This document shows, piece after piece, positions 1,235-53,572 of a stretch of 64,000 nucleotides of DNA. Source of the DNA: an uncultured Flavobacteriales bacterium (GTDB taxonomy: Bacteria > Bacteroidota > Bacteroidia > Flavobacteriales_D > CAJJDF01); the NCBI GenBank assembly GCA_905182785.1, contig CAJJDF010000015.1, positions 3,555-67,554 of the forward strand, in the 5' to 3' direction. The notes under the pieces were generated by a model. The model ran no database searches. It saw nothing but the letters and a program-made list of their open reading frames with translations, and was not told the DNA's origin. Every line of letters begins with the position of its first letter. Position 1 is the first letter of the stretch. The translations under genes were made by a program, and so were the position numbers.

Positions 1235-2101
1235 TTAAATCTTGATAGTCTCCTTTTCAGAGTGGTATTGAGTTAACTCTTCTATCGGGCATCTAGTTAT
1301 TTTTTTTATCTCCATACCGTGTTTTTCTGCAACTTCTTCTAAAATATCTCTATAAAAATATGCTATAGACCCGACAAAACCTAATGGATATTTTTTATAA
1401 TTTTTATACGGCAAGATTCTTACCTCAAAGAAATTATTAAAACCCTTGACAATTATATTTCTTAGTTCAGGATAATCAAGTTTATTATGATAAAACCTAG
1501 CAAAGTTAGCTAGAAATACATTAGGGTTTTTCTCTCTGTATGTTGTATTAAGTATTTGATCCTTTGTTAATTTAAATTGTTCTTCAAATAAAAGATGCAA
1601 ATCAGGGTGTAAACTTCCACTTAAATATAGTTTTACAAGTTCAATTCCAAGATATGAACCACTTCCTTCATCACCAAAAATATAACCATGAGAAGCAATG
1701 TTTTCTATTTCATTTCCATTTTCCCAAGTACAAGAATTAGCTCCAGTACCCAATATACATGCAATCCCTGTTGAATCTCCTAAAGTAGATCTTGCTGCAG
1801 CAATTAAATCATGATTTACATGAATTTGTGCTTTAATAAATTGAGGTTGTAAAGCATTTTTAATAATTAAATTTTTCTCTTCAGAAGAGCAACCTGCACC
1901 ATAATAATGGACGTCTGTTACTTTCGAAAAATCGATTCTACATTCTAAAAAAACCCTATGCATTTCATTGAAGATCACTTCAGAAGTTTGAAAATAAGGA
2001 TTGAATCCAATAGTTTTTATTCTCTTTATTACGGTTGATTGATCGTCTATGACCACCCAATCCGTTTTTGTAGATCCACTATCAGCAATTACTTTGTACA
2101 T
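1235..2101 (-). CDS. BadF/BadG/BcrA/BcrD-type ATPase, N-acetylglucosamine-kinase-like sugar kinase (candidate glucokinase of the cluster)
   Basis: 288 aa. The N-terminal ADSGSTKTDW phosphate-binding motif plus ILGTGANS and FGDEGSGSYLG are typical of the ASKHA NAGK/BadF family. It lies 4 nt downstream of the GH gene. Confidence 0.7.
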   Translation of the reverse strand: MYKVIADSGSTKTDWVVIDDQSTVIKRIKTIGFNPYFQTSEVIFNEMHRVFLECRIDFSKVTDVHYYGAGCSSEEKNLIIKNALQPQFIKAQIHVNHDLIAAARSTLGDSTGIACILGTGANSCTWENGNEIENIASHGYIFGDEGSGSYLGIELVKLYLSGSLHPDLHLLFEEQFKLTKDQILNTTYREKNPNVFLANFARFYHNKLDYPELRNIIVKGFNNFFEVRILPYKNYKKYPLGFVGSIAYFYRDILEEVAEKHGMEIKKITRCPIEELTQYHSEKETIKI

Positions 2102-2105
2102 ATAA

Positions 2106-3368
2106 TTAAATTATTTTAAAAGGAATATTTCCTGTTGCTACATTCCCATTTCCATCATGAACAAAAAGGAATAGTCTATATTCACCTTTTTCTGGGGCTT
2201 TAAATTTTATTTTGTTCTTCTTTTGATCACTTTTATTAATTATTCCTTTTAACGGTTTAGGAGATCTTTCCTTATCACCACCTGTTTTTTTATCAGTACT
2301 CTCAGGAATAATTTGCCATTCATACCTTAGTTCATCTCCATCCTTATCTACTATTTCAACAGAAGCAGTCATTTGTTCATTTTCCAGAACAGTAACATTG
2401 TTAGATGAAGTTTTGGAATTTATCATGAAGTTATTAATTGAAGGAGCGAAATTTTTTGGATCCGCATTATTCCAACTTTTTATCAGAACATCCATTACTT
2501 CAGTTTCATCTCCATCTTCTGTAAAGAGTCCAAACCATGTAGAAGTATGTTCTTGTTTTTGTCCCCAAAGAAATACATAAGATCCAAGGCAATTGACCGT
2601 ATCAGAATTAATAGCTTTCATACTTTTATTGTAAGTCTCAGCTTTCTCAGTACTAGTTTGTTCTATGGATGCGCCCCATTTGGTTTTACTTACTTCCCAC
2701 CAACCATATGGTCCCCATTCGGCAACTACATAAGCTTTTTTCCAACCATATACTTTAATAGCTTCTGGTAAATAAGAAATATCACCATATGTATTAACTC
2801 CTAAGATATCTAGACTAGGAACGTACTTATTGATTAATTTCACTTCTGCAACATCTAAACCAGCTGTAACAGACATTGTAGGATGATTAGGATCTTCTTC
2901 ATGAATCATTTTACACAATTGCTCTAGGTATTTCCAAACATCAAAGTTTGTATAATCCAAATCCATTTCATTTCCAACCCCCCATAATAGAATAGCTGGA
3001 TGATCTTTGTATTTTCTTATAATTCTCCTGAATTCATTAAGTTGTGCTTTCACTGCACCTTCATTAGAATAATCGAAGCCTTGTCTTTCTTGCCCCATCC
3101 AAATACCGAATGTAACAGTAATTCCATTTTTATGAGCTTCGTCTAAAACTTTGTCAGTATTAGCATCTATCCCCCAAGTTCTTATTGAGTTTCCTCCATA
3201 AGATTTTAGCTTTTCCAATTCTACTGTTCCTCCAGCTCCCTTTATGAAATAAGGGGTGCCGTCTTTTAATAATTGAAATCCATTTTCTGTGGTTTTTACT
3301 TCAACTTTTGAAGAAAAACCAGTTATACAACTGAAACTTACTATAAGATATAATAGAATGATTTTCAT
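2106..3368 (-). CDS. secreted clan GH-A (beta/alpha)8 glycoside hydrolase with a C-terminal Ig-like domain; candidate endo-beta-1,3-glucanase (GH158-like?)
   Basis: 420 aa with a signal peptide. The NSIRTWG and LLWGVGNEMD (acid/base NE) motifs and a later VVAEWGP (candidate nucleophile E) fit a GH-A TIM barrel. The last ~100 aa (VTVLENEQMTASVEIVDKDGDELRYEWQ...) look like a beta-sandwich. The family number is unverified. Confidence 0.6.
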   Translation of the reverse strand: MKIILLYLIVSFSCITGFSSKVEVKTTENGFQLLKDGTPYFIKGAGGTVELEKLKSYGGNSIRTWGIDANTDKVLDEAHKNGITVTFGIWMGQERQGFDYSNEGAVKAQLNEFRRIIRKYKDHPAILLWGVGNEMDLDYTNFDVWKYLEQLCKMIHEEDPNHPTMSVTAGLDVAEVKLINKYVPSLDILGVNTYGDISYLPEAIKVYGWKKAYVVAEWGPYGWWEVSKTKWGASIEQTSTEKAETYNKSMKAINSDTVNCLGSYVFLWGQKQEHTSTWFGLFTEDGDETEVMDVLIKSWNNADPKNFAPSINNFMINSKTSSNNVTVLENEQMTASVEIVDKDGDELRYEWQIIPESTDKKTGGDKERSPKPLKGIINKSDQKKNKIKFKAPEKGEYRLFLFVHDGNGNVATGNIPFKII

Positions 3369-3372
3369 TTTT

Positions 3373-4176
3373 TTATTGATTTTGATAAACTCTAACGTAA
3401 TCTATTTCCATATATTGAGCCGTTTGAAGAGATGTGTTACTTACATTTCCTCCTAAGTTTCCCCCAACGGCTGTATTTAATAATAAATGAAATTCAGCAT
3501 CAAAAGGCCAAGTTGCACTAATTGTAGAATTTGTTCTTAATACTTTGTAAGTTTCTACATCATCAATGAACCAAACAATACTATTAGCATCCCATTCAAT
3601 TGTATATTTATGAAATAGATTGTCATAAGCCATCGGTTCTGTTTCTCCAAGTTGCCTGTGGTTTCCTAGATTGTCGGCAAAGTGTATCGTGTTAAAAATT
3701 TCAGTACCCCTATTTCCTACAAATTCCATAATGTCAATTTCACCACTAGTAGGCCACCCATTCTCAGGATTGGTTGGAAGCATCCAGAGCGCATGCCATA
3801 ATCCACCTGCATCTGACATCCTGATTGAAGCTTCAATCTTCCCATATTTAAAGTCACCTTTATTTAAAGAGCGTATTCTTCCTGAGGTATAATCAAAACC
3901 AGCAAAAGTTTCTTTAATGGATTTTATTTTTAATATTCCCCCAGATACAGTTACATTTTCTTTTCTGTAGTATTGTTCTTCATTATTTCCCCATCTATAT
4001 AGCCCATAAGTTGTACCATCCCCGATTTGAGTTTCCCATTTATTCAAGTCTAAATCACTTCCATTAAATTCATCTTGCCAAACTATGCTGGATTTTTTTT
4101 CAATTGGATCACTTTGTTTGCAATTATAGATTGTTGCAATTATACAAAGAAAGTATATAATAGATTTGTTTCTCAT
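3373..4176 (-). CDS. GH16 endo-beta-1,3-glucanase (laminarinase), lipoprotein
   Basis: 267 aa. Contains the catalytic GH16 motif GEIDIMEF (ExDxxE) and W/G-rich jelly-roll motifs. The signal peptide ends ...IYNC. Confidence 0.9.
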   Translation of the reverse strand: MRNKSIIYFLCIIATIYNCKQSDPIEKKSSIVWQDEFNGSDLDLNKWETQIGDGTTYGLYRWGNNEEQYYRKENVTVSGGILKIKSIKETFAGFDYTSGRIRSLNKGDFKYGKIEASIRMSDAGGLWHALWMLPTNPENGWPTSGEIDIMEFVGNRGTEIFNTIHFADNLGNHRQLGETEPMAYDNLFHKYTIEWDANSIVWFIDDVETYKVLRTNSTISATWPFDAEFHLLLNTAVGGNLGGNVSNTSLQTAQYMEIDYVRVYQNQ

Positions 4177-7548: not shown

Positions 7549-9810
7549 TTATTTAACAACAAAGCCGAGCCTATTGTTCGCAATTTCTATTTTAAAATAA
7601 CCTTCTTCAACCTTCCATTTATTATTAACATCTACAAAAGCTAAGTCTGAAATAGGTAATTTGAATTGAACTCTTTTTGTTTCATTTGCATTCAAATTCA
7701 CCTTTCTAAAAGCTCTTAACCTTTTGACACTTGGTGTTATAGATGCGGTAGAGTCACTTATGTAAACTTGCACAACTTCCTTTCCTGCAATCTCGGAGTT
7801 GTTAGTTACATCTATACTAATTGTTATGCTATCAGTTTTAAGAATCTCAGTTTTATTGATTGATAAATTGGAATAACTAAAAATAGAATAGCTCATCCCA
7901 AATCCAAATTCCCATTGTGGATTAAATGCTTTGTGTCCAAAGCTTATGTCTAATATTTCTGTGTATTTATGATCATAAGGAACAAATGAACCGGTATACC
8001 TCGGGTAAGTAAATGGCAGTTTTCCTGATGGATTCGATTTTCCAAATAGAATTTGAGCCAAAGCTTCTCCTCCAAAATCTCCTGATAAATAGGTATGAAG
8101 AATTGCATTTGCATCATTCACAATAGAATTAATAATTCTAGGACGATTAAAACTTAAAGCAAATACAATAGGTTTATTCAATTTACTTAGTTCTTTTACC
8201 AATTCAACTTGAGCATCTGGTAAATTTAAATCCTTTATGTTTCCAGGTATTTCTGTACAAGGAATTTCTCCCAAGCAAATAACTATCACTTCGCTTTTCT
8301 TAGCTTTTGCAATTGTCTCATTCAAATTTGCTTTTTTATCTAATTCAGAACCTAAAGAATAGATTACATTCCCTGTGCTATTTTCTTTTATTGCCTCGTA
8401 AAAGGTTTTAGTTTTTTTAGTATTATATGCAGTGTCTACTCCTTGCCAAGTGTGAGTCCAAGCTCCGTTTTGTATATTCAATGAATTGGCAGCTGGTCCA
8501 CAAACTAAAATGTTAGTATTTTCCTTTAATGGAAGTAAACTTTTCTCGTTCTTTAATAAAGTGATAGACTCTAGAGCAGTATTTAATGCAATTTTTTTAT
8601 GCTCGTTGGAAGCGAATTTGGTATAATAATCAAAACTTGGGATAGGGTTTTTAAGTAATCCCAATTTTTTTTTTACCCATAATATTCTTCTACAGGATTC
8701 ATCCAGTCTGCTTTCTTTTATTTCTCCACTATCCACCAAACTAATTAACGCTCTATTGAAAGAGTAATCGTTTGGAGTCATACTCATATCAATTCCAGCA
8801 TCAATAGCTAGTTTTACTGCTTCACGCATATCTTTCGCTACTTTATGATCTCTATAAAGTTTTATAATATCTTCCCAATCTGTTACAGCAATCCCTTTGA
8901 ATCCTAATTCATCTCTAAGCAAATTTGTTAAAATAGCTGGATTTGCATGAACAGGAATTCCGTTTATTTCACCAGAATTTATCATTACTGTCAAAGCATT
9001 TTCTTTAATAGCAGTCTCAAAAGTTGGCAAATAGTATTCTTTAAGCTGTCTTGCAGGAATCCAAGCTGGAGTTCTGTCTTTTCCGGACAATGGAGTACTG
9101 TAACCTAAAAAATGCTTCATACAAGATGCTACTTTCTCAGGGTTGGAAGGATCGTCCCCTTGATATCCAGTTATACAAGCTTCTGTCATTTTTTTTGCTA
9201 AATAAACATCTTCTCCATAAGTTTCAAAAAACCTTGACCACAAAGGCTGACGTCCAATATCTAATACTGGAGAGAAATTCCAAGGAATTCCAGATGCACG
9301 ACATTCATAAGCAGTAACTGATGCCCCTTGTTTTACTAATTCTGGATTCCAAGTAGCTGCTTGTCCAATTTGCTGTGGAAAAAGAGTTGCATCTACTGTG
9401 TAGTTCACCCCATGAATAGCATCAATACCATAAATAACAGGAATCTTATTTCCTTCTGTAATTGCTTTAGTTTGTATTTGGGTAATAATTTTTTCCCAAC
9501 GATCTCTTGTGTAAGTGTGACCCCCAACATTAAGTATGGAACCAACAAAATAATGGTTGATTGCAGAATCTAATTTTAAAGAATCTAATTGATGAGGTTT
9601 TACTAGATTGAATATCTCTCCTTTCGAGATTACATCAATATTTATTTGAGTCATTTGCCCCACTTTCTCAGCAATACTCATTTTGGAAATGAAATTTTCA
9701 ATTTCTTTATCAAATCCTATTTCGGATTTATTATTTTTCTTCTTCTCAGAGCAAGAGTTCGTAAGAAAAATTATTGATACAAGGATTAAACCTAATTTCA
9801 TTCCTTTCAT
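7549..9810 (-). CDS. bglX: GH3 beta-glucosidase (exo-beta-glucanase), lipoprotein
   Basis: 753 aa. Contains the GH3 nucleophile motif GFKGIAVTDWEDI, an N-terminal TIM barrel, an alpha/beta sandwich and an Fn3-like tail. The signal peptide ends LTNSC. Its ATG overlaps the upstream stop (ATGA at 9807-9810). Confidence 0.9.
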   Translation of the reverse strand: MKGMKLGLILVSIIFLTNSCSEKKKNNKSEIGFDKEIENFISKMSIAEKVGQMTQINIDVISKGEIFNLVKPHQLDSLKLDSAINHYFVGSILNVGGHTYTRDRWEKIITQIQTKAITEGNKIPVIYGIDAIHGVNYTVDATLFPQQIGQAATWNPELVKQGASVTAYECRASGIPWNFSPVLDIGRQPLWSRFFETYGEDVYLAKKMTEACITGYQGDDPSNPEKVASCMKHFLGYSTPLSGKDRTPAWIPARQLKEYYLPTFETAIKENALTVMINSGEINGIPVHANPAILTNLLRDELGFKGIAVTDWEDIIKLYRDHKVAKDMREAVKLAIDAGIDMSMTPNDYSFNRALISLVDSGEIKESRLDESCRRILWVKKKLGLLKNPIPSFDYYTKFASNEHKKIALNTALESITLLKNEKSLLPLKENTNILVCGPAANSLNIQNGAWTHTWQGVDTAYNTKKTKTFYEAIKENSTGNVIYSLGSELDKKANLNETIAKAKKSEVIVICLGEIPCTEIPGNIKDLNLPDAQVELVKELSKLNKPIVFALSFNRPRIINSIVNDANAILHTYLSGDFGGEALAQILFGKSNPSGKLPFTYPRYTGSFVPYDHKYTEILDISFGHKAFNPQWEFGFGMSYSIFSYSNLSINKTEILKTDSITISIDVTNNSEIAGKEVVQVYISDSTASITPSVKRLRAFRKVNLNANETKRVQFKLPISDLAFVDVNNKWKVEEGYFKIEIANNRLGFVVK

Positions 9811-10949
9811 TTATCAGTAATTTTAATTTCATTTATAAAAACTTCTCCTTCGCCAGTTCCTTCAAAATAGACTTCTCTTATTTGGTCCATTGCAAAATTT
9901 TTATCTTTCAAATTCAAGTTTTTCATAGGGACATTTATTATAGTCCAGTCATTAGAAGTTATTGTTTGAGTTTTACTTGTAAAAATTTCAGCTTTATGTC
10001 CTCTGAAATCGTGTATAAAAACTTTGAATGCTGAGTTTTTTGTTGCTTTTATTTTAATTTGAAAACTAGAATTTTCATCAATACCTCTAAGGTTCATTGC
10101 ATACCAACCATTCCAGTTAATCCCCCATTTTGCCCAGCTGCATTCTTTTGAATTGTATATCCAGTGAATTTGTTTTGTTTCATTTTTAGATATTTCCTCT
10201 ACCAAAGTTTGACATTCGTTATTTTCAGAACCCCAAACATCTTCTTCAAAACTTCCTTCTCTGTAAACAATTTGATTCGCGTTTCCTTTTGGTCTCATGA
10301 GTTCAACATCTGCTCTCATTTTGTCATATTTTTCTTGAGAATAGTCGATAATCGTGATTTCATCTAGAAAGAATGACCCACCACCTTCTAGTTGAAATTT
10401 CATTTGTTTTATTGAGCTAATATCTACTTCATTTTCTTCATCTATAGGGAAATGCCATAATGGAACAATTATTTGTTTCCAAGTTGTATCCATTTCAAGA
10501 CCATAAAGGTATTTTCCTGCATCAATATAATAATAACTTCCTCCACCAGAAAAATCTTCTAAGTTTGCAACAATAGGAATTGCTCGTGCGGTTTTTTCTT
10601 GTGTTCTTACGTAAAATGAAAGTGCTTTTCTGAAACGGGATTCAGACAAATCTGTTGGCTGCCAGTTATTGAAACTGTTTCCAAATCCAATCCATTCACA
10701 TTTTGCTTTATTCCAATCTAACTTTATGCTGGATTTTCCAGAATAAGCTACTTGGTTACTTATTTCGAAGTTTCCACAATTGAAAAGTGAATTCCACATT
10801 GTCCCTGTCCCTTCGCTAAAAAATACTTGTTCATCATCTTCTCTAGAGGCAGGGAATTCATATTTGTCATATAAGACCTGTTCTTGAAATTTTATACTGT
10901 CACAAGTTGCAAGTAGTAATGTAAACGTTATAAAAACTAATTTTCTCAA
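9807..10949 (-). CDS. lipoprotein with two tandem aromatic-rich beta-sandwich modules (candidate surface glycan-binding protein)
   Basis: 380 aa. The lipobox reads LLATC. There are two ~165-aa halves, each with a W/G-rich core (CEWIGFGNSFNNW; WAKWGINWNGWY) and a terminal ...FLDEITII / ...VFINEIKI strand. ATGA overlaps occur at both ends. Confidence 0.6.
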   Translation of the reverse strand: MRKLVFITFTLLLATCDSIKFQEQVLYDKYEFPASREDDEQVFFSEGTGTMWNSLFNCGNFEISNQVAYSGKSSIKLDWNKAKCEWIGFGNSFNNWQPTDLSESRFRKALSFYVRTQEKTARAIPIVANLEDFSGGGSYYYIDAGKYLYGLEMDTTWKQIIVPLWHFPIDEENEVDISSIKQMKFQLEGGGSFFLDEITIIDYSQEKYDKMRADVELMRPKGNANQIVYREGSFEEDVWGSENNECQTLVEEISKNETKQIHWIYNSKECSWAKWGINWNGWYAMNLRGIDENSSFQIKIKATKNSAFKVFIHDFRGHKAEIFTSKTQTITSNDWTIINVPMKNLNLKDKNFAMDQIREVYFEGTGEGEVFINEIKITDK

Positions 10950-11947
10950 GGTGTGTAAGGTTTATTAGTAGTAAATATCAAATGATCAATGTATGCTTTG
11001 GCTAATCCATTGTCTTTGTTGGCCAGGTAAAACACGTTAATAGACATTAATTTTCCTGGTTCTGGTAGTCCGTTACCATTAGTGGAAACTTTATTACCGT
11101 CAACATCAAATTGTATGTCAGAGTACTTGTAACTGATTAGATTCCATCCTGTATCCTCGAACCAATATTCGTAAATAAATCTATCTTCAGTAGCTAAGTC
11201 GAATGTTCCATCTCCATTTTCGTCTTCATCAAACCAAAACTGGATAAATGTGTTTCCAGTACCAGAGTTTTCAATTGGCTTGAAAGCCATGTTAAAAAAC
11301 AAATTAGAAGCACTTGCTGGTAATCCGAAATTAGCTGTGCTAGGCTGAATCATAACTGACCCAATAGCCCAATCCCAAGGGACATTTCCAGTAAAACTGT
11401 AATGACAATTTCCTTTTGCAGATTCTCCGCTTCCACAATCGATTTTTCCTTGAACTGTCGATTGATTAAATTTAGACCAATTTGCACCTTCTCCATTTTC
11501 AAAACTTGTAATAAGGTATCCTGCATCTACTTTGCTTCCAGTAATAGAAACGGTATCATAAAGTATAGGTGAGCCTTCTTCCTTGGGAAAACTTATTTCA
11601 ATATAGGCAGTTTCTATTCCAAATCCAGGGAAAGAATTTGCTCCTCCATCCCAAGTAGAATTGTCAGCAGAAATAACTCTTTGGGTTCCACTTATAGACC
11701 TTTTAGCCCCAGTTGAAGCCCCAGTAATTGAAATTACCCAGTCGGTATTTTTCGATAATTCACCTGTAAAGTGAAGCGTGTTATCTACAGGGAAATCTGC
11801 TGTTTTTTTGTTAACTTCAATTTCTTGGATTATTGAAAATGGGCCGAATAAGTCATTTAAATCAGGACCATCAAAATTTTCTGAATCGTCTTTTCTACAA
11901 GAAAAGATTAAGAGAACTGATATAAGGACTAATGTTGTTTTTTTCAT
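10946..11947 (-). CDS. lipoprotein, candidate surface glycan-binding protein
   Basis: 333 aa. The lipobox reads LIFSC. The protein is rich in beta-strands and ends YIDHLIFT, like the neighbouring CBM-like modules. I recognised no known family. Confidence 0.55.
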   Translation of the reverse strand: MKKTTLVLISVLLIFSCRKDDSENFDGPDLNDLFGPFSIIQEIEVNKKTADFPVDNTLHFTGELSKNTDWVISITGASTGAKRSISGTQRVISADNSTWDGGANSFPGFGIETAYIEISFPKEEGSPILYDTVSITGSKVDAGYLITSFENGEGANWSKFNQSTVQGKIDCGSGESAKGNCHYSFTGNVPWDWAIGSVMIQPSTANFGLPASASNLFFNMAFKPIENSGTGNTFIQFWFDEDENGDGTFDLATEDRFIYEYWFEDTGWNLISYKYSDIQFDVDGNKVSTNGNGLPEPGKLMSINVFYLANKDNGLAKAYIDHLIFTTNKPYTP

Positions 11948-11950
11948 AAT

Positions 11951-13666
11951 TTAAAAAGTAAGAGAGTATAAAAATGTGAATTGTGAAATTCCATAATTCA
12001 CAGAAGTTGCGTCTTTGTGTTTTACATCAAAAAATTGGTATTGAGCAGACAAAGTATTTTTATCGTTAAATCTATATCTTAGCCCTGAAGCATAAGTATT
12101 TTCTGAAAAATTATAATCTAAGATATCGAAATTTTCAATGGCGTTAAATTGATTACGCAGATTCACGTAAGTATTTCCTTTTACCACCCATACTTTGGCA
12201 CCAACCAAAAGGTCTAGTTTCTCGGCAAACTCCCAAGATATTCCCGCATCTATAAAAGTGCTATTAAGTTTTACTTTTTCGTATACTTCTCCAGTTCTCG
12301 AAGTGTTTTCGTATCTAAGTCCTAAATCAACTTTTAGCTGTTTTTTCCATCCAAAAAAATCATTGATATATACATCAGTTCCTGCTTCAATTTGTATAAA
12401 TTTTTTCTTTTTAGAGGTTCCCGTTCCTCTAGACTGAGTCATAAATGCAGCCTTGACAAAACTGTTTTTAAATTTAACAGAATCCGTTCTTACTAAATTT
12501 AGATAAACTCCTCTTCTGTTTGGAGTTGCATCTCCGTAAGGATTCATATTGTTGTATCCAGCAAAATAAGGAATTAGCTCCTCTGATATCTTAATTGAAT
12601 TTTCAGTGTTTCCGCTAATAAAATCAGTGTAACTTATTGGTCTTCCTGTTACATTATTACTTATTTGCTGGTATAACCCAGGGAATTTCGAATAATTAAT
12701 TCTTTTTGTTTGCGCTCCTGGAGATAAAAAATCAGCTCCAATATCTTTATAACCCAATTCTACAGTGATTTTTTTGTCTTCAAAATCTGTAACGAATGCT
12801 AGATCATAAAAATAATCATTTATAGATTCTGGCGCTCTAGCATCTTTGTAATTTATGTATTGCGCTCCAGACATCCCTGTTTCCGTTTTTATCCCTAGAC
12901 TAATGTTTTCTCTCAAATTCCTTTTATAAAGTAAATTAAAAGTATGGACATTATTTTTATATTGAATACTGTCTTGAATAGTTTCTGTAAGGTCAAAAAT
13001 ATTAACACTATTGAAACCAAAGGAAAGGTTTTCACTTTGTTTAATATTTATTGTTCCACCACCATATAATCTTTCTGGCTCTACAATTCCATCAGTTGGT
13101 CTTTGTCTAGTAATGAATCCTTTAAATTTTATGGCTTCGATTACATTCGCAAACTCTAATCCAAAATTCACTTTTGCTCCTTGCATTCTCCAGGAGTTGT
13201 CTTCGTTATAGAACATATCGTAATACACTATTTCTCTTCTCATGGCAAACACATCTCCTTCATTTATTGCACCTTCTTCAATTGTATTGAATAAAGTATA
13301 AGGAGTCATTTTTAGATCTATATCCCCAATTTCATATTTTACTTTATTTCCTGCAACCCCTTTCAAAGTAAGTTGTCTTACATTAAAAGAAACACCACCT
13401 CCCCAGAACCCGCCAATTTCGTTTCTAATTCTAAACATAGAAATTACCTCAGTATTTTTATTTGGGAATAAACTAATTCCCATATCCAATAGCGTGTGTC
13501 CGTAATTCGCTTTTCTTGTTGTAACTGAATCAAGAGATTCGTCTATATTCAATTTATTAGAAAATAAATAACCCCTTGCCGCTCCGTTTATTTGAAACTT
13601 CTTTTGCTGACCAATAAGTACATTGGTAGTTAGAATTAAAAGCAGTATTAATATTTTTTTAGTCAT
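11951..13666 (-). CDS. plug-less outer-membrane beta-barrel (putative porin)
   Basis: 571 aa with a signal peptide. The mature N-terminus enters alternating beta-strand sequence directly, with no TonB box or plug-sized domain. It is rich in Y/G/N and has a C-terminal aromatic signature ...FLYSLTF. Confidence 0.6.
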   Translation of the reverse strand: MTKKILILLLILTTNVLIGQQKKFQINGAARGYLFSNKLNIDESLDSVTTRKANYGHTLLDMGISLFPNKNTEVISMFRIRNEIGGFWGGGVSFNVRQLTLKGVAGNKVKYEIGDIDLKMTPYTLFNTIEEGAINEGDVFAMRREIVYYDMFYNEDNSWRMQGAKVNFGLEFANVIEAIKFKGFITRQRPTDGIVEPERLYGGGTINIKQSENLSFGFNSVNIFDLTETIQDSIQYKNNVHTFNLLYKRNLRENISLGIKTETGMSGAQYINYKDARAPESINDYFYDLAFVTDFEDKKITVELGYKDIGADFLSPGAQTKRINYSKFPGLYQQISNNVTGRPISYTDFISGNTENSIKISEELIPYFAGYNNMNPYGDATPNRRGVYLNLVRTDSVKFKNSFVKAAFMTQSRGTGTSKKKKFIQIEAGTDVYINDFFGWKKQLKVDLGLRYENTSRTGEVYEKVKLNSTFIDAGISWEFAEKLDLLVGAKVWVVKGNTYVNLRNQFNAIENFDILDYNFSENTYASGLRYRFNDKNTLSAQYQFFDVKHKDATSVNYGISQFTFLYSLTF

Positions 13667-15561
13667 TAGAAAATAATTTTTAGTTCCAAAGTAGTTTCGT
13701 GACCTGCAAATTGATCCAATGCAAAATTGCGGTCTTTAAATGTGAAATACCTATGTCTTAAATAAATAGCTGTATTTTTTGCTAATAAATAATCTATCCC
13801 AAGCCCAAAAGCAAACCCCTCCTGGTTTCTTGGGCGGTTAGATTCAATATCAACTTCGGTATCGTAATTTGCAATTACCCTTTCCCATCCTAAATATTGA
13901 GATAATATTACTTTAGGATGTAGTTTGTAATAACTTTCTAATTGGTGAGAATAATAACGCAAATATGCCTCCTCATTAAATACGGTAACAGGCGAAAATT
14001 TCTTTTGTATAGAATTGTATGAACCTAAGTAAAATAAGTGCCAAGGATTTCCAAAAAGATTTATTTTATACTTTACTTGCGCTTCAATGTTATTAAAATG
14101 TTTGTCATTCACAACTGCCCCCTGATTGTCTAAATCAGTTAAATTAAGTGTTTGAAATACATTTCTAAATAAAACAGAAGTGCTGTTATACGGTCCAACA
14201 TTAGCTGGGAAACTCCATCTCCAAAATCTAGACATTGTTAATCCGTTTATGGCGTGACCGTAAGTAATGGATTTGTTTTCGTTTCTAATTTCTTTTGAGA
14301 AACCATTGCCAATTGAAACAATAGCCTCCTTTATTTTAAATTCGGTATTAATATTTAACCCCTGACGGTTATTTGCCATTTGTCCCATACCAAGCATTGC
14401 ACTTCCATTTTGTTGTAACACTCCATTGGCACCAATCACTGTGCTGATTCCAGCTGCAGCAGATGTTGCCTCAACTACAGAAGTATTTACAAATTCGGCA
14501 TTGTTATTTACAACATCAGGATTTATTCTGAAATAATGAATTTCGATTGGGATCTTAGTCAAGCTTTTCTTTAAATTTACTTTTAATGAAACCATTTCGC
14601 CTATTCCTAAATCTTTGTACACATCCTTATAATGTCCCGCTCCAACCTCTCCTAATAAAGAAAATTTATCGAAGCTAAAATAAAACTCACTGGTTAAAAC
14701 TTGGTTACTTATTTCTTCTGTTGCAAGAGCATTAGAGTAAGTTTTTCTATTAAAACTATTCAGACTAATTCTGTGTTTATTAAAAGTTTTTTTAATACTT
14801 CCCGCAATTACATTGTTAGGAATTGTATTGTCATAAAATTTAATAAAATTATTGGAAGTGGAATCATACGATATATTGGCAGGATCTATAAAAGCTGCTC
14901 CAGCATTTTGAGTCTTCCCATACATAAAATTAGCTGATATTCCAAGTGGTAATTCTGTTAAATCTAATATAAATCCTTGAACAGCTTGTTGCGCCCATCT
15001 TGTATCTTGAGAAATTGCCCCGTTCTTATAATAATCTTCGTACCTCTTGTTCAATTCTTTGAATTGCGGATCCCAAGGATTTCTGTCGAAAATGCTATAT
15101 CTATTATAACCAGAAAATGACTTCATTGTGAATGCAGTCATACTATGCCAGTGAATTCCTCCAGCTTTTACGCCAATATTTGCAAATTTTGTTTTAAAAT
15201 TCCCATACAAATTTATTCCTAATTGTAGATTGTGATAGTAATCGAAATCACCATTGTTTTGATTCCAGATTACCAAATCTGTACCAAAAGAAGTCCCTTT
15301 TGATGGACTTCCTCCAATGTTTAGAGTTAACTCTGGCAATTGAGATGCATCACCAACTAGGATCGTTCGTTTACTTAAATATTGGGGTTGGTCATTTAAT
15401 ACTTGAAAAGCATACGGGTTTGTAAACAACCTATGTTGTGTAAAAAATCGATAATTTCCACTGATATTAAATCCTTGCAAAGGAGCTTTTTTAACAATAG
15501 TGTCTTGAGCAACTAATTGAAAAGAAAACAACAGTAATATGATTGTATAAATTGACTTCAT
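13666..15561 (-). CDS. plug-less outer-membrane beta-barrel (putative porin)
   Basis: The ORF track gives 13666-15588. I prefer the second Met (MKSIYTIILLLFSFQLVAQ, a clean signal peptide), ATG at 15559-15561, which gives 631 aa and removes the 26-nt overlap with the symporter. The C-terminus is ...TTLELKIIF. No plug or TonB box. Confidence 0.6.
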   Translation of the reverse strand: MKSIYTIILLLFSFQLVAQDTIVKKAPLQGFNISGNYRFFTQHRLFTNPYAFQVLNDQPQYLSKRTILVGDASQLPELTLNIGGSPSKGTSFGTDLVIWNQNNGDFDYYHNLQLGINLYGNFKTKFANIGVKAGGIHWHSMTAFTMKSFSGYNRYSIFDRNPWDPQFKELNKRYEDYYKNGAISQDTRWAQQAVQGFILDLTELPLGISANFMYGKTQNAGAAFIDPANISYDSTSNNFIKFYDNTIPNNVIAGSIKKTFNKHRISLNSFNRKTYSNALATEEISNQVLTSEFYFSFDKFSLLGEVGAGHYKDVYKDLGIGEMVSLKVNLKKSLTKIPIEIHYFRINPDVVNNNAEFVNTSVVEATSAAAGISTVIGANGVLQQNGSAMLGMGQMANNRQGLNINTEFKIKEAIVSIGNGFSKEIRNENKSITYGHAINGLTMSRFWRWSFPANVGPYNSTSVLFRNVFQTLNLTDLDNQGAVVNDKHFNNIEAQVKYKINLFGNPWHLFYLGSYNSIQKKFSPVTVFNEEAYLRYYSHQLESYYKLHPKVILSQYLGWERVIANYDTEVDIESNRPRNQEGFAFGLGIDYLLAKNTAIYLRHRYFTFKDRNFALDQFAGHETTLELKIIF

Positions 15562-15562
15562 T

Positions 15563-17206
15563 TTACCAAAAGATTGAATATAGTGCAATTAATAATAAGA
15601 TGATTCCGAATGATAAAATATTGTAAGTTTTGTCAGTTTTGAATAAATTAGAAGTAAAATGTATTCCTTTTTTGTCGTCTACCCCTTTGTTTTGTAGTAA
15701 TGATATAACTATCATAATGGTAGTAGTAATTAGAAATGTAATTCCCATTTGATGCATAAATGGTAAGTCTGGAAAGATTGCACTACTTGACCATCCTTTG
15801 GGGCCAATCTTGAAAAACATTGCAATAGGTATAGAAAGAAAAGCACCAATTATTGCAGCTCTTGCTGTGGCTTTTTTCCAAAACAAACCTAAAATAAATA
15901 TGGCTAAGATTCCTGGACTAACTATACCAGTATATTCCTGAATGTATTGAAACATCTCTGGAACACTATCTAGTAAAGGAGCTAAAATCACAGCAATTAT
16001 CAAGGCAACTAATCCAGATAATCGACCTACTTTAACTAGTTGTTTTTCTGATGCTTCTTTGTTGATTAAGGGTTTGTACAAATCCATTGTGAAAATGGTA
16101 GAAGTACTATTTAGCATGGAAGCAAGCGAAGAAACAATTGCTGCTGCTAATGCTGCAAGGATTAATCCTTTTAATCCTGCTGGAATAAATTTAGAAATTA
16201 ACCAAGGATATGCTCTGTCGTTTTCTACAACACCCGCTGCATTGGTAAACTCGGCAACTACCTCAGGGTCTTCAATAAACATTGTGTATGCAATGATTCC
16301 CGGGATTATTACTATCAAAGGGACTATCATTTTTAAGATTGCTGCAAAAACAATTCCTTTTTGTGCTTCTTTGAGACTTTTTGCAGCTAATGTTCTTTGA
16401 ATAATATATTGATTGAAACCCCAATAGTAAATATTAGCAACCCACATTCCTCCTACTAATACTGCAATTCCAGGGTATTTATTGTAATCTTTATGAGCTT
16501 TATCTAAAATCATATCAAATTTCTCTGGAGCCTTTTCAAATATATATTGAAAACCACCCATTATAGATTCGTCAGGCGATATGTGAGTTAGTGCAATTCC
16601 TGTAGTAATTAGACCACCAACAATAAGTAAAACAACTTGAATAACGTCTGTCCATACAACAGAAGATAAACCACCCCACAAAGAGTAAGCAGCTGTAAAC
16701 AATGCAAATCCTATTATGCAATAGATAACCATGGCTCCATCACCTTCTCCCATAATGGTATCAAGTGCTGTTGCTCCTAAATACAAAACAGAGGTTAAAT
16801 TAACTAACACAAACAAGGCTACCCAAAATACTGCTAGAACAGATTTTACTTGAGCGTTGTATCTTTTTTCTAAGAATTCAGGAATGGTGTAAAGTCCTTT
16901 TTCAATGAAAATAGGGAGGAAATATTTACCGACAATAATAAGAGTTAAGGCTGCCATCCATTCGTAAGATGCAATAGCTAGTCCTACTACAAAACCTCCT
17001 CCAGACATTCCAATAAATTGCTCAGCAGATATATTTGCGGCAATTAGCGAAGCTCCAACAGCCCACCAGGGGAGAGATTTACTAGCAAGAAAGTAATCAC
17101 TAGAATTGACTTGATCTTTCTTAGGACGAGAGACAAACAATCCGACTGATAATATTAGGATTGCGTAAACTACTAAAACAACAATGTCAATGGGAGCTAA
17201 ATTCAT
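15563..17206 (-). CDS. sodium:solute symporter family (SGLT-like Na+/glucose) transporter
   Basis: 547 aa with ~13-14 hydrophobic helices. The N-terminus reads ...DYFLASKSLPWWAVGASLIAANISAEQFIGMSG, characteristic of the SSF/SGLT family. Confidence 0.88.
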   Translation of the reverse strand: MNLAPIDIVVLVVYAILILSVGLFVSRPKKDQVNSSDYFLASKSLPWWAVGASLIAANISAEQFIGMSGGGFVVGLAIASYEWMAALTLIIVGKYFLPIFIEKGLYTIPEFLEKRYNAQVKSVLAVFWVALFVLVNLTSVLYLGATALDTIMGEGDGAMVIYCIIGFALFTAAYSLWGGLSSVVWTDVIQVVLLIVGGLITTGIALTHISPDESIMGGFQYIFEKAPEKFDMILDKAHKDYNKYPGIAVLVGGMWVANIYYWGFNQYIIQRTLAAKSLKEAQKGIVFAAILKMIVPLIVIIPGIIAYTMFIEDPEVVAEFTNAAGVVENDRAYPWLISKFIPAGLKGLILAALAAAIVSSLASMLNSTSTIFTMDLYKPLINKEASEKQLVKVGRLSGLVALIIAVILAPLLDSVPEMFQYIQEYTGIVSPGILAIFILGLFWKKATARAAIIGAFLSIPIAMFFKIGPKGWSSSAIFPDLPFMHQMGITFLITTTIMIVISLLQNKGVDDKKGIHFTSNLFKTDKTYNILSFGIILLLIALYSIFW

Positions 17207-17268: not shown

Positions 17269-17961
17269 TTATACATCAAAATTGAATCCTTTCTTTTCAA
17301 GGATTTCATACTGTTTTTTATCGAACTGAAATAATTTGGCAGGTCTATGAGAAACATTCTCTTGGAGTTTCCCAGTTTCTTTTAAAAGTTTCATTTGAAG
17401 AATTTTTTTACGAAAATTCCTTGTATCCATTTTAATATCTAAAATAGCTTCATACAAAAGTTTTAGCTCGGTAAGTGTAAATAGTTGTGGCAACAATTCA
17501 AATCCTAAAGGCCTGATTCTAACTGATTTTTGAAGTTTTTGGATAGAACTCAATAGAATTTTATCATGATCAAAAGCAAGTTCGTTTATTTTTTTTATTT
17601 TAAACCACTTAGCTTTCGAGGCAAAAGAAGAAGGATTTAATTCGTAATCGTCAATTTTTATAAGGGTATAATAACCAGTGGTTATTACTCTGCCAAGAGG
17701 GTGTCTTTTAATTTCACCAAAAGTTTCTACTTGTTCGAAGAACAAATCACTCAAACCAGTAAGATCTTTTAAAATATGATTTACAGAGACATTCAAATCT
17801 TCATCAGGTTTCATTAAGTCTCCAGGTAAGGCCCAAAAATTTTTAAAAGGAACTTCACCTCTTTTGATTAATAAGACTTTTAAATCTTTTCCGTCAAAAC
17901 CGAAAACGACACAATCAATTGAGACGGCCAGTGTAAAATATTTTTTTAGGTTTTTTTCCAA
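17269..17961 (-). CDS. Nudix-domain + winged-helix transcription regulator (NrtR/AraR-like), catalytically degenerate
   Basis: 230 aa. The N-terminal Nudix fold has its Nudix box degenerated (GDLMKPDEDLNVSVNHILKDLTG; REUxEE is replaced by NHILKD). The C-terminal ~90 aa (FTLTELKLLYEAILDIKMDTRNFRKKILQ...) resembles the NrtR wHTH. Confidence 0.7.
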   Translation of the reverse strand: MEKNLKKYFTLAVSIDCVVFGFDGKDLKVLLIKRGEVPFKNFWALPGDLMKPDEDLNVSVNHILKDLTGLSDLFFEQVETFGEIKRHPLGRVITTGYYTLIKIDDYELNPSSFASKAKWFKIKKINELAFDHDKILLSSIQKLQKSVRIRPLGFELLPQLFTLTELKLLYEAILDIKMDTRNFRKKILQMKLLKETGKLQENVSHRPAKLFQFDKKQYEILEKKGFNFDV

Positions 17962-22236: not shown

Positions 22237-23850
22237 TTAATGTTTTACTATTTTTTTTGTAATTACTCCAATTGAGGTTTCAATTTTGGCAAAATAGATT
22301 CCTTTTTTTAAATGAGAGATGTCTATCTGTGTATTTTCCTTATTCAGGATAAATTGCTGAATTAATTTACCTTGAATATCAAGCACTAAAATTGTAAAGT
22401 TTTTGTCCGGAAGGTTGTTTTTGTCGTGAATTGAGAAGTAATTTCTAGTTGGATTAGGGTAAATAATCAATTCATTATTAATTGTTAATTCATAAACTGA
22501 ATTGATGCTACAAACATTAATAGGCTTGGTTAAAGTATTTCCAATTTTGAGAATTGGGTTTGTGATTCCAGAACCGGAACTTTCACTAGAAGCAGTAGTT
22601 GTTTTTACCGTTAATGGATTTACAACAATTGTAGAGGTTGAATTTTGATGACAACCGCTATTTCCAAGGCTATCTGTTTTTACTAGGTAAATATCATAAT
22701 TCCAAGTGTTAAAACTATTTGTGTAGCCCGCCATGATAAATCCTTTATCGATAGTTTGTTTTATAGATTCACCAAAGTCTATAGAGGTTCCTCCGTATGT
22801 TCTTGTCATTATTGTATCTCCCAAAGAATTTAGTTTTATGAGGTAATAATCTTCAAACCCTTTTCCATAACTTCGGGTGTTGCCAAATACTACAATGTCC
22901 TTATTAGGAAGTTCTAGGATAGATTTCCCAGATTCATTTTCTGACCCACCCATGGCTTTAGACCAGATTAAGTTACCAATAGAATCAATTTTCAGGATAT
23001 AAATATCTCTTTGTCCAGAGCCAAAACTTTCTGTAGAGCCGGATATTACAAATCCACTATCGCTAGTTTCTGTAATTGCGTTTCCAAAATCATTTAAGAG
23101 GCCACCGTAAGCATTTGCCCATTGTAATGCTCCTGAAGCATTAATTTTTATAACATAAACATCTGATACACCCTCGCCAAAGCTAAATGTATTTCCAACT
23201 ATTGCAAATCCACCGTCTTGTGTTTGTACCATATCGTTTGAGCCATCTATTCCGCTCCCTCCGTAAGCTTTTGCCCATAATGTGTCGCCCAACTTATTTA
23301 TTCTTAACACATAAATATCTCTTATTCCTGAGCCATAAGTTTCTGTGTAACCCGATAAAATATAACCACTATCTGCAAGTTGAATTACTTTATAGCTGTA
23401 GTCTGAATTTATTCCACCATAAGTTTTGGTCCAAGCTGTATCTCCAGTTGTAGTAAGTTTAAGTGCAAAAATATCAGAAGATCCAGATCCAAAAGCATGA
23501 GCTTCTCCCACAACCATGTAACCCAAATCAAAAGTTTGAATGACGTTATACGCTTCATTTCCTGCGCCATCTCTATTGCTTGTAATTGTAGTATCTACTG
23601 TTGGTCCATAAGTATTTGCCCACAAAGTATCTCCATTGGCATCTAGTTTTACCACATAATACTCTGCACTGAGTAAACCAGAAACATCATAAGAACCGGC
23701 AAGTATAAAACCACCATCTTTGGTTAAGTCTACAGAATACGCTCTGCTAGCATTCGTACTTTCGTATTTTTTTTGGAATAGCTGTTGGGCGTTAATGTTC
23801 TCTGCTACAAATAATAATAGAACAATAAATAGAGGGTTATATCGATTCAT
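22237..23850 (-). CDS. T9SS-secreted seven-bladed propeller-like repeat protein
   Basis: 537 aa. It has about seven ~50-aa repeats (GDTLWAKAYGGSGxDxxxxVxQTxDGGFxIxGxTxSFGxGxxDxYVIKxxxx) followed by a T9SS C-terminal domain (LIIYPNPTRNYFSI...LDIQGKLI...GIYFAKIETSIG). Confidence 0.65.
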   Translation of the reverse strand: MNRYNPLFIVLLLFVAENINAQQLFQKKYESTNASRAYSVDLTKDGGFILAGSYDVSGLLSAEYYVVKLDANGDTLWANTYGPTVDTTITSNRDGAGNEAYNVIQTFDLGYMVVGEAHAFGSGSSDIFALKLTTTGDTAWTKTYGGINSDYSYKVIQLADSGYILSGYTETYGSGIRDIYVLRINKLGDTLWAKAYGGSGIDGSNDMVQTQDGGFAIVGNTFSFGEGVSDVYVIKINASGALQWANAYGGLLNDFGNAITETSDSGFVISGSTESFGSGQRDIYILKIDSIGNLIWSKAMGGSENESGKSILELPNKDIVVFGNTRSYGKGFEDYYLIKLNSLGDTIMTRTYGGTSIDFGESIKQTIDKGFIMAGYTNSFNTWNYDIYLVKTDSLGNSGCHQNSTSTIVVNPLTVKTTTASSESSGSGITNPILKIGNTLTKPINVCSINSVYELTINNELIIYPNPTRNYFSIHDKNNLPDKNFTILVLDIQGKLIQQFILNKENTQIDISHLKKGIYFAKIETSIGVITKKIVKH

Positions 23851-51862: not shown

Positions 51863-53572
51863 TTAAAACCTCAGTGTAGCTCCTCCCATTATATTTATTC
51901 CTTGAACAGGATATAAATAATACTGTTGGTATTTGCGGCTGATTATATTATTGAAATTTAAGAAAGCAGAAATCGATTTGTTATATCGGTATTCAAATCC
52001 TAAGTTAAAATCAATAATAGGTTTTAAATTTATCGAATACGTATTGTCACTATTAGTTTCAGCTCCGTCAACATAGACTAAAGATTTAGCTTTTCTGGTT
52101 CCAAGGAAATAAGCGTCAGCTCTAACTAAAATTTTATCAGCTAAATCATAAATTCCTCCCACAGTAATATCCAAAGCTGGGGTATTCCATACATGTTCTT
52201 GATTAAGTGGCGAAAAAAAGCTGTATTTTCCGTTTACATACACTCTTAGTTTGTCCGTTTGATCATACATTACTTGAGCACTTATTTCTGTCACATCCAT
52301 AGAATCGTACAGTACATCCATTTTGTTTTGAATGGAATAAGTAGTGTCGTTATAGTATAATGCATTTCCGTAAACACTTTTTCTTGCTACTTGTGCATTG
52401 AATGAAACTTTATTAGAAATACTTCCTCTAACCCCTGCATATACATTGTATCGAGTGTTTGTATTTTGCAAAGTAACTTGCGACAACAAGAAAGGGTTTT
52501 CGTTTGTAAGCGAACGAAAAGAGTTTCTTTCCAATCCTCCATTAATTCCAATATAGGGAACAAAAATATCATGAAAACTATACTTGGCTTCAGCATTGGG
52601 ATAAAAATGGAAACTTGTTTTATCATTCACATCAGCAAATATTCCTAGTCCCACTCTTGCGTACCATTTTTTACCTGAAGTAGTAATGTTAGGAACAACT
52701 TTAATTAGGGTATTGTTTACAGTATTTTCATTCATTGGCCAATTCCAAACACCTCCTAATGGAAGCCCCTTTATACTAGAGTAATTATTAAAATCCACTC
52801 CAAAATCCACTCCGTAAATCTCTTTATTTTGCATTTTTGATGCACTCAAATCTAAAACGACATTATTTTCTGAGGCATTATACTTGTCAAAATAATGGGT
52901 GTAGCCTAAAGAACCTTTGTAGTTTATATCTCCTGTGTCTGTATCAAAACTAGAGAAGCTCACTTTTCCTCCAATGTTATTAAAAGCTTGTTTAATATCG
53001 TTCTTATCAATTACAGTGTCTTCTGAATTGAAACCATAAAAATGATTTCCGCTTCTTTCGTAATTTATTTCTCCTGTTACCGAGAATTTCTTGTAAAAAT
53101 GCTGGTAAAAAGCACTCGCTTTATTCTCGCTCATCCCACTAAAACCTGTTCCTTTTATAGTAGAATTTGACGAAACATGTCTTCCGTGAATTCCCCAACT
53201 GCTGTTTTTAGATCTTAAAGAATTGTAATATACTTCAACCAAAGGAGTGGTGTACATTCCTATCCCACCTTTTATATAACCTCTTTTAAGTTTATCAAGA
53301 GGATCAATGATTTTTAATTTCGCTGGTGAAATTGACTGTAGTTGAAACTCAGAATTTGCTTTGTATTCATAAAATAAAAAGCTCGATTTTATCTGAGATT
53401 TTGATGTATCTCCAATCAATTTTGGGGTAAGCAGAGTTTTTTTGGTCGGCTTAATTATTCTGTCTCCAGTTCCAATTGCAGCTGTTTCTATGATAGTATC
53501 ATTCTGACTAAATCCATTTACGATAGCCAAAATAAACACTAAAAATACCGATATGTTTTTAATATAATTCAT
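51863..53572 (-). CDS. outer-membrane beta-barrel (putative porin)
   Basis: 569 aa with a signal peptide. It is Y/G/N/S-rich with alternating strands and a C-terminus ...MGGATLRF. Its start shares 1 nt with the stop of the upstream TPR gene. Confidence 0.55.
   Translation of the reverse strand: MNYIKNISVFLVFILAIVNGFSQNDTIIETAAIGTGDRIIKPTKKTLLTPKLIGDTSKSQIKSSFLFYEYKANSEFQLQSISPAKLKIIDPLDKLKRGYIKGGIGMYTTPLVEVYYNSLRSKNSSWGIHGRHVSSNSTIKGTGFSGMSENKASAFYQHFYKKFSVTGEINYERSGNHFYGFNSEDTVIDKNDIKQAFNNIGGKVSFSSFDTDTGDINYKGSLGYTHYFDKYNASENNVVLDLSASKMQNKEIYGVDFGVDFNNYSSIKGLPLGGVWNWPMNENTVNNTLIKVVPNITTSGKKWYARVGLGIFADVNDKTSFHFYPNAEAKYSFHDIFVPYIGINGGLERNSFRSLTNENPFLLSQVTLQNTNTRYNVYAGVRGSISNKVSFNAQVARKSVYGNALYYNDTTYSIQNKMDVLYDSMDVTEISAQVMYDQTDKLRVYVNGKYSFFSPLNQEHVWNTPALDITVGGIYDLADKILVRADAYFLGTRKAKSLVYVDGAETNSDNTYSINLKPIIDFNLGFEYRYNKSISAFLNFNNIISRKYQQYYLYPVQGINIMGGATLRF

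Follow-up and report, generated by a model that had tools for sequence, protein, structure and literature searches.

Paired β-barrels predicted to lack a plug hold the SusC/SusD position in a putative laminarin locus of aquatic Flavobacteriales

What is taught about glycan uptake in Bacteroidota, and how it is predicted and quantified, centres on SusC/SusD, which serve as markers both in finders of polysaccharide utilisation loci (PULs) and in bloom metaproteomics. In a 2026 review of bacterial glycoside transporters, TonB-dependent transporters (TBDTs) are the only outer-membrane class listed. In the β-1,3-glucan locus of Bacteroides uniformis, GH16_3, GH158 and GH3 enzymes are encoded together with a TBDT, the SusD-type protein SGBP-A, and SGBP-B. 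Here, we describe a locus with the same GH16, GH158 and GH3 triad from an uncultured Flavobacteriales bacterium (assembly GCA_905182785.1, contig CAJJDF010000015.1, positions 3,555 to 67,554; hereafter the window, 64,000 nt), in which two adjacent genes for outer-membrane β-barrels, here called OMP-A and OMP-B, and two lipoprotein genes (LipoA and LipoB) hold the position that the TBDT, SGBP-A and SGBP-B have in B. uniformis. Our reading, to which we assign a probability of roughly 55%, is that OMP-A and OMP-B are anciently duplicated plugless barrels serving for passage across the outer membrane in a laminarin (β-1,3-glucan) utilisation pathway independent of SusC/SusD.

An initial annotation, made from the letters of the DNA alone, had proposed that the barrels sit where SusC/SusD normally sit, within a PUL-like operon containing GH16 and GH3. 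This holds: no SusC or SusD was found among the larger open reading frames (ORFs) of the window that were tested, and neither LipoA nor LipoB has a SusD/RagB match in Pfam. Carbohydrate-active enzymes (CAZymes) are present, while the susC/susD pair of the canonical PUL definition is missing. A scan for relatives using one genome per species returned ~350 stretches encoding a relative, from which 80 loci were kept for synteny counts; denominators below 80 include only loci with enough sequence at the position concerned. The 80 loci stem from marine and freshwater Flavobacteriales metagenome-assembled genomes, many of them labelled Crocinitomicaceae, Cryomorphaceae or Lishizhenia. OMP-B follows directly downstream of OMP-A in 74/74 loci, LipoA is next in order in 65/65 and the fourth gene (LipoB type) in 59/59, making the suspected association of the barrel pair with two downstream lipoproteins absolute wherever sequence suffices. 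The co-occurrence with glycan-degrading enzymes that had been put forward as a check was likewise found, with GH16, GH158 or GH3 present in 67 of the 80 loci. No ORF in these loci combines a length of at least 700 aa with an aromatic C-terminus, and hence none of the loci has a SusC-like neighbour.

Carbohydrate-binding proteins and CAZymes remain neighbours of the barrels at identities as low as 40%, also where the CAZyme set differs. The distant four-gene cassettes (loci L082, L083 and L085–L088) include one beside a GH5-mannosidase, a mannose-6-phosphate isomerase and a ROK kinase, one beside a pectate lyase gene, one beside GH9 and, on a high-GC contig probably from outside Flavobacteriales, one beside LacI, MFS, GH3 and GH16. 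With such varied enzymes around it, the cassette therefore behaves as a portable glycan-locus module, like SusC/D. The specialisation for gluco-oligosaccharides suggested initially does not extend to the family, which is wider, as the GH5/mannose-6-phosphate isomerase, GH9 and pectate lyase neighbourhoods demonstrate. Moreover, the barrel of some distant OMP-A homologs is preceded by a fused CBM_4_9 domain at the N-terminus (L081:2543–4921 and L082:10001–12382; P0272, P0283 and P0278), which physically links the barrel family to carbohydrate-binding domains. In these cases, too, an OMP-B homolog (33% identity) lies downstream with overlapping stop and start codons and is followed by genes for two small proteins. 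The fused CBM_4_9 domain has no significant relation to LipoA or LipoB.

The gene structure given in the initial annotation, two adjacent genes of 571 and ~631 aa sharing 1 nt at 13666, was confirmed by ORFs and codon positions: the TAA stop of OMP-A (13668..13666) and the ATG of OMP-B (13666..13664) have the last A of the stop in common. OMP-A starts with the ATG at 15561 (an in-frame upstream TTG would add 9 residues, resulting in 640 aa), and the stop codon of the upstream symporter gene lies 1 nt before this start. Symporter, OMP-A and OMP-B thus form a tightly packed, translationally coupled unit, the overlap and the 1-nt spacing indicating that they are co-translated. The predicted signal peptides were borne out as well, since both N-termini possess a K-rich n-region, a hydrophobic core and a cleavage site (VAQ|D in OMP-A, LIG|Q in OMP-B), and AlphaFold places an N-terminal helix at residues 2–16 (OMP-A) or 2–18 (OMP-B) with strands directly after it. 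In agreement with the claim that the mature N-termini go straight into strand sequence, strand 1 begins at about residue 30 in OMP-A and 26 in OMP-B. The N-terminal peptides quoted in the initial annotation and the C-terminal ends (...LKIIF, ...YSLTF) are correct, and the C-terminal Phe is invariant across 48 OMP-A and 49 OMP-B homologs. A described richness in Tyr, Gly and Asn stood in part. Compared with the other 10 operon proteins, OMP-A and OMP-B are enriched in Asn (10.1% and 9.1% vs. 6.7%), Tyr (5.6% and 5.8% vs. 3.8%) and also Phe (7.2% and 7.4% vs. 5.7%), but Gly is barely raised (7.4% and 8.2% vs. 7.2%).

AlphaFold2 models, computed from alignments of 48 (OMP-A) and 49 (OMP-B) homologs, are all-β past the signal helix. 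The OMP-A model (predicted local distance difference test score, pLDDT, 82.3; predicted template-modelling score, pTM, 0.80) has 24 strands and that of OMP-B (pLDDT 68.1, pTM 0.65) has 22, in line with the 18–24 estimated beforehand; with short turns set as periplasmic and the C-terminal strand made to end in the periplasm, these counts carry an uncertainty of ~2 strands. Both proteins thus combine a signal peptide, a closed all-β barrel and a C-terminal aromatic β-signal, the general hallmarks of outer-membrane β-barrels. Foldseek matched both models to many outer-membrane barrels with a probability of 1.0, though only to generic ones (TM-score ≤0.49), the highest scores being to 22-strand barrels. 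In both models, strand 1 follows the predicted cleavage site by ~10 residues, and OMP-A and OMP-B are therefore predicted to lack an N-terminal globular domain. The absence of a plug had been argued initially from a lack of room for one; the conclusion stands but the argument fails, because Escherichia coli BtuB holds a plug and 22 strands in 614 aa. Rather than from size, the predicted plug absence in OMP-A and OMP-B follows from the models and profiles.

Indeed, a Pfam scan of both barrels at E ≤ 1 found no Plug (PF07715), TonB_dep_Rec, LamB, OprD, OprB or other porin model, the sole match being a sub-threshold one to OMP_b-brl (PF13505; 19–21 bits vs. a cut-off of 28.7). An NCBIfam scan returned nothing, and neither Pfam nor NCBIfam gave a match to OprB-type, putative-porin or alginate-export models. 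Membership in a LamB/ChiP-, OprB-, alginate-export- or putative-porin-type family, which had been under consideration, thus finds no backing in the profile searches. Homology to TBDTs was also rejected, as aligning the family profiles to FhuA, BtuB and FepA with hhalign yielded probabilities below 1%. The outcomes named beforehand as counting against a glycan channel did not turn up either: the predicted folds are barrels, Pfam and PDB profile searches revealed no homology to barrels exporting lipopolysaccharide (LPS), capsule or fatty acids, and none of the related loci was found in a context unconnected with glycans. With no fitting family in Pfam, NCBIfam or PDB, OMP-A and OMP-B represent, as judged by these searches, two new barrel families. 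None of the 321 OMP-A homologs has an assigned name, and the OMP-A family comprises 310 clusters at 50% identity. In public databases, the four cassette proteins of the window are annotated as 'hypothetical', 'opacity protein-like surface antigen' (one source, for OMP-B) or 'carbohydrate binding domain-containing protein' (NCBI, for LipoB), and marine assemblies, those of Tara included, contain them in abundance.

Profile comparison of the two families, using ~120 sequences each, gave an hhalign probability of 97.7% (E 2e-12) over 523 columns, end to end. At shallower depth the value had been 47%, the signal becoming clear only with the larger sets. By this measure, OMP-A and OMP-B are distant paralogs that were anciently duplicated; the initial impression that they are not close paralogs was accurate as to closeness, yet missed their distant kinship. 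Both barrels carry two long non-strand insertions at matching places, L3 between strands 5 and 6 and L7 between strands 13 and 14. Extracellular loops are normally the most variable part of outer-membrane proteins. The conservation of L3 and L7, however, equals or exceeds that of the strands, and their lengths are fixed (compared across 62 orthologs, down to 40% identity). By contrast, L4 of OMP-A ranges from 11 to 33 aa, measuring 11 aa in all freshwater orthologs and ~31 aa on average in marine ones. L3 has an aromatic content of 17–21%, with invariant residues including Asn, Arg, Asp, Gln, Trp and Tyr, and L3 and L7 of OMP-B add up to 122 residues, near the mass of a TBDT plug. In OprD-family channels, L3 and L7 form the constriction. 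By analogy, L3 and L7 of OMP-A and OMP-B probably fold into the lumen and constrict the pore, with L3 of OMP-A as a candidate pore-constricting or sugar-contacting loop.

OMP-A additionally contains an unusually long conserved periplasmic turn with a short helix at residues 437–460 (window 14182–14253, minus strand; AINGLTMSRFWRWSFPANVGPYNS), in which four positions are at least 90% conserved. A periplasmic partner may dock at this turn, or the turn may insert into the lumen as T8 of AlgE does.

Export of lipoproteins to the cell surface of Bacteroidota depends on an experimentally defined signal, C-X-K-(D/E)2-X (PMC5080379). The mature N-terminus of LipoA is an exact match, and C-R/K-K-D/E-D/E is kept in most of 67 orthologs; LipoA is therefore predicted to be surface-exposed. 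The LipoA profile found nothing in the PDB and distant versions of the protein have a weak CBM_11 match, and we regard LipoA as a new lipoprotein family. The family profile of LipoB matches the CBM30 structures 1wmx and 2c24 (E 6e-4), and a related short form passes the SGBP_B_XBD threshold. No significant relation between LipoA and LipoB was detected. The mature N-terminus of LipoB (C-D-S-I-K-F-Q-E-Q-V-L-Y-D) is without the export signal, and a periplasm-facing anchor is therefore predicted. Across species, the N-terminal F-K-x-x-x-L-Y-D motif of the fourth protein is kept, and the protein itself occurs in three forms: a lipoprotein (in marine loci, including the window), a protein exported via signal peptidase I (SPI) without a lipid anchor, and one that likewise leaves via SPI but is extended by a further N-terminal segment. 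Two species have the CBM30-like domain of the fourth protein (motif F-Q-K-x-x-L-Y-E) fused N-terminally to a complete GH3 (L043:8926–11916 and a 971-aa ORF in L076). These forms, together with the GH3 fusion, therefore place the fourth protein on the periplasmic side, the compartment of GH3. Freshwater fourth proteins are SPI-exported rather than lipidated, and many further possess a C-terminal CBM9-like domain.

The barrel genes belong to a minus-strand operon with the order (5′ to 3′) regulator, symporter, OMP-A, OMP-B, LipoA, LipoB, GH3, two type IX secretion cargo genes, GH16, GH158 and kinase (Table 1). PULs usually rely on hybrid two-component or SusR/ECF-type regulators; here, a Nudix-type winged-helix protein is encoded instead, which is present in 44 of the 80 related loci. 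Pfam gives just a weak GH2 TIM-barrel match for the GH158 gene, whose assignment comes from PDB entries including 6pal, i.e. BuGH158. For neither type IX cargo protein was a Pfam domain found beyond the sorting tail. The two repeats of the 610-aa cargo span ~170 aa each, and this protein weakly matches PDB 8qx6 (E 5e-4), an entry deposited under the name 'PKD domain-containing protein'. Both cargo proteins may be laminarin-binding surface proteins, and type IX cargo genes are missing from many cassette-bearing loci. A further type IX secretion cargo of 537 aa is encoded outside the operon (window 22237–23850, minus strand). Elsewhere in the window, a second minus-strand gene pair with a 1-nt stop/start overlap (51863–53572 and 53572–56628) is of SusC/SusD-like size. 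It was rejected as a SusC/SusD pair, the 1018-aa product being a tetratricopeptide repeat (TPR) protein and the 569-aa product having no Pfam match.

Table 1. Coordinates of the operon genes, of the long barrel loops and of fourth genes with a TonB-box-like segment (window positions unless a related locus is named)
Feature	Position	Strand	Description
Nudix-type winged-helix regulator (NrtR/AraR-like)	17269..17961	-	Probable operon regulator; Pfam NrtR_WHD 5e-26, AraR_C 5e-15, NUDIX 5e-6
Na+/solute symporter (SSF)	15563..17206	-	Probable inner-membrane glucose importer; Pfam SSF E 1e-72
OMP-A	13666..15561	-	631-aa outer-membrane β-barrel, signal peptide, ~24 predicted strands, predicted plugless, C-terminal Phe
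OMP-A L3	14989..15144, residues 140-191	-	Aromatic-rich, conserved, exactly 52 aa in 62/62 orthologs
OMP-A L7	14368..14523, residues 347-398	-	52 aa, long conserved loop between strands 13 and 14
OMP-B	11951..13666	-	571-aa outer-membrane β-barrel, 22 predicted strands, putative distant OMP-A paralog
OMP-B L3	13181..13324, residues 115-162	-	48 aa, conservation above that of strands, 12 positions at least 90% conserved
OMP-B L7	12518..12739, residues 310-383	-	Exactly 74 aa in 62/62 orthologs, 16 positions at least 90% conserved
LipoA	10946..11947	-	333-aa lipoprotein; lipobox; mature N-terminus C-R-K-D-D
LipoB	9807..10949	-	380-aa lipoprotein, CBM30-like domain(s); Pfam CBM30 E 1.4e-6
GH3 β-glucosidase	7549..9810	-	Lipoprotein signal, no export signal, probably periplasmic; Pfam Glyco_hydro_3 4e-70, Glyco_hydro_3_C, Fn3-like
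Type IX secretion cargo, 444 aa	6102..7436	-	Pfam Por_Secre_tail E 7e-12
Type IX secretion cargo, 610 aa	4260..6092	-	Two internal repeats; Pfam Por_Secre_tail E 2e-11
GH16 endo-β-1,3-glucanase	3373..4176	-	Lipoprotein signal; Pfam Glyco_hydro_16 E 4e-24
GH158 endo-β-1,3-glucanase	2106..3368	-	420 aa; phmmer E 1.3e-99 to PDB 9oro (GH158), 1.6e-74 to 6pal
BadF/GlcNAc-kinase-type sugar kinase	1235..2101	-	Pfam BcrAD_BadFG E 1.3e-7
Fourth genes with TonB-box-like segment	L048, L051-L053, L055, L057, L060, L062, L064-L066, L068, L070-L072, L077-L080; ~14.4-15.7 kb in most loci		

Beyond operon position and enzyme triad, the cassette resembles the SusC/SusD system of the B. uniformis locus in that a barrel of ~22 strands is followed by glycan-binding lipoproteins, that it is modular and reused with different CAZyme sets, and that LipoB-type domains resemble SGBP-B/CBM30 modules. 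It differs in that its barrels are without plug, N-terminal extension domain, TonB_dep_Rec signature and detectable TBDT kinship, in that it lacks a TPR-type SusD, in having two paralogous barrels rather than one, and in one accessory protein being predicted to face the periplasm. The sugar porins (LamB/ScrY, ChiP, OprD/Occ) are likewise plugless barrels encoded in sugar-utilisation operons; their specificity comes from inward-folded loops, with L3 and L7, the very loops that are long and conserved here, forming the constriction in the OprD family, an aromatic-rich L3 is shared, and maltoporin is followed by the gene for a periplasmic binding protein, MalE, as the barrels are by LipoB. Maltoporin is an 18-strand trimer with a greasy slide, and OprD/Occ channels are 18-strand monomers. 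However, sugar porins have 16 or 18 strands in ~350–450 aa as opposed to 22–24 strands in 571–631 aa, and, unlike the cassette barrels, neither a paired paralog nor lipoprotein partners. Foldseek TM-scores to them are just 0.25–0.37 (maltoporin 0.32–0.35), mirroring the lack of Pfam matches. LptD/LptE and MtrB/MtrA, both among the Foldseek matches, share a comparable barrel size and an obligatory lipoprotein or periplasmic partner, but export LPS or conduct electrons, have no sequence kinship and an unrelated context, and there is no sign of an in-lumen partner in the cassette.

The initial annotation had stated that neither barrel has a TonB-box-like N-terminus. This is true for OMP-B, in which no such motif was found, but not for OMP-A, whose mature N-terminus QDTIVKKA resembles those of FepA (DDTIVVTA; 5/7 positions match), BtuB (PDTLVVTA) and FhuA (EDTITVTA). 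Only closer relatives retain this exact motif, and its columns are not majority-conserved. A more relaxed pattern, D-[ST]-[LIV] past the signal peptide, occurs in 19 of 57 OMP-A family representatives (33%) vs. 43 of 487 control secreted ORFs (9%; p 2e-6). Besides, 18 distinct freshwater fourth-gene products contain L/M-D/E-T/E-V-x-V ~9 residues past the cleavage site (e.g. MDTVRVTG, MEEVNVLG), where the window LipoB has its lipid anchor. With ~22 strands and a D-T-[IL]-x-V-like motif near the mature N-terminus of OMP-A and of fourth proteins of the third form, the cassette recalls FepA, BtuB and FhuA; unlike in these transporters, no plug lies between motif and strand 1 in OMP-A, and profile kinship is lacking as stated above. 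A shortening of the putative lumen loops in loci with the fourth-protein motif was rejected, since L3 and L7 have the same lengths with or without it.

Taken together, the locus suggests the following sequence of events. Laminarin would be captured at the surface by LipoA and the type-IX-secreted proteins and cut by the GH16 and GH158 endo-glucanases. The resulting oligosaccharides would cross the outer membrane via the barrels, whose pores would be narrowed and made selective by the aromatic- and polar-rich L3 and L7 in the lumen. On the periplasmic side, membrane-tethered LipoB would catch the oligosaccharides and GH3 would trim them to glucose, which the Na+/solute symporter would import and the BadF-type kinase would then phosphorylate, all under control of the Nudix-type regulator. 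We infer that the barrels serve jointly as the import conduit and that passage through them is energy-independent in the marine form. Passive diffusion as in LamB or ChiP, proposed initially, is a reasonable if unproven analogy.

Several points weigh against this reading. The passive glycoporins known to us have 14–18 strands, and barrels of 22–24 strands are far larger; all barrels of at least 22 strands that we know of (TBDTs, LptD/LptE, MtrB/MtrA, PapC and SprA) are closed by a plug or partner. The TonB-box-like motifs of OMP-A and the freshwater fourth proteins fit poorly with purely passive diffusion. The position of L3 and L7 inside the lumen was deduced rather than read from coordinates, the confidence of the OMP-B model is only moderate (pLDDT 68), and searching the PDB by sequence with both family profiles gave no meaningful match and no solved homolog. 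Finally, the reading does not account for the need for two barrels.

The same size argument leads to an alternative that we consider doubtful, though it deserves to be taken seriously, namely a gated or energised importer in the manner of a split TBDT, in which LipoB, or the CBM of the fused homologs, would plug the barrels in trans, or in which the barrels would be coupled to TonB via the N-terminus of OMP-A or of the fourth protein. The resemblance of the OMP-A N-terminus to that of FepA and the enrichment of the relaxed pattern in its family speak for such an arrangement, as does the motif of the freshwater fourth proteins, which is located where TBDT TonB boxes lie. For each of the three variants of the fourth protein, the N-terminus is predicted to lie in the periplasm, and fusions to GH3 occur; barrels and accessory proteins keep a strict 1:1:1:1 synteny; and the CBM_4_9 domain of the fused OMP-A homologs occupies the place N-terminal of the barrel that the plug has in TBDTs. 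However, LipoB of the window is lipid-anchored instead of carrying a TonB-box-like segment, the OMP-A motif falls short of majority conservation, the CBM30-like jelly rolls are unrelated to TBDT plugs, and the constant lengths of L3 and L7 suggest that the barrels were not emptied for a foreign plug. Carried further, this line of thought would make the cassette a fourth kind of outer-membrane glycan importer, a four-protein, SusC/D-independent machine with its TonB box on the barrel or in trans and thus a split TBDT with a detachable plug, which we deem unlikely.

Quite unlikely, in our estimate, is that the barrels are surface-display machinery that exports or anchors LipoA, the lipidated GH16 and the type IX cargo, while oligosaccharides enter otherwise. 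LipoA with its export signal is always encoded beside the barrels, marine loci contain type IX cargo genes, and Slam sets the example of a dedicated barrel translocon for surface lipoproteins in other phyla. The scan of the barrels against Pfam revealed no PorV-, PorP- or Slam-type similarity, however; many cassette loci do without the cargo genes, and the 80 loci encode no TBDT as another way for sugars across the outer membrane. Moreover, export of lipoproteins in Bacteroidota is regarded as a general pathway, one that accepts heterologous signals (PMC5080379), and SusC/D loci encoding numerous surface lipoproteins manage without barrels of this kind. That OMP-A and OMP-B are unrelated housekeeping barrels (for LPS, capsule or lipid, or general porins) merely adjoining glycan genes, as the weak generic OMP_b-brl match and the 'opacity protein' label might imply, is highly improbable given the synteny down to 40% identity across CAZyme sets, the CBM_4_9 fusions and the lack of matches to export-barrel families.

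Searches of the open literature retrieved no prior description of the cassette. A Formosa 'porin' (PMC6246565) considered as a precedent belongs to a nitrogen-metabolism cluster and is unrelated. In a 2025 study, a Crocinitomicaceae isolate was scored as lacking PULs. The present locus provides a putative sugar-operon outer-membrane channel from new families in a new four-part architecture, and its two barrel families and one lipoprotein family, all of them new, are material for structural work. It also offers a tractable test of whether import of large oligosaccharides is possible without a classical plugged TBDT; the TonB-in-trans reading, if true, would be categorically new. The SusC/D-free cassette occurs in ~350 marine and freshwater Flavobacteriales species, alongside enzymes for laminarin, mannan, cellulose and pectin. 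As it is conserved without the SusC/SusD marker proteins, current annotation overlooks part of the polysaccharide turnover in aquatic habitats. These findings suggest that many Flavobacteriales of marine and fresh waters import algal sugars through a route not described before.

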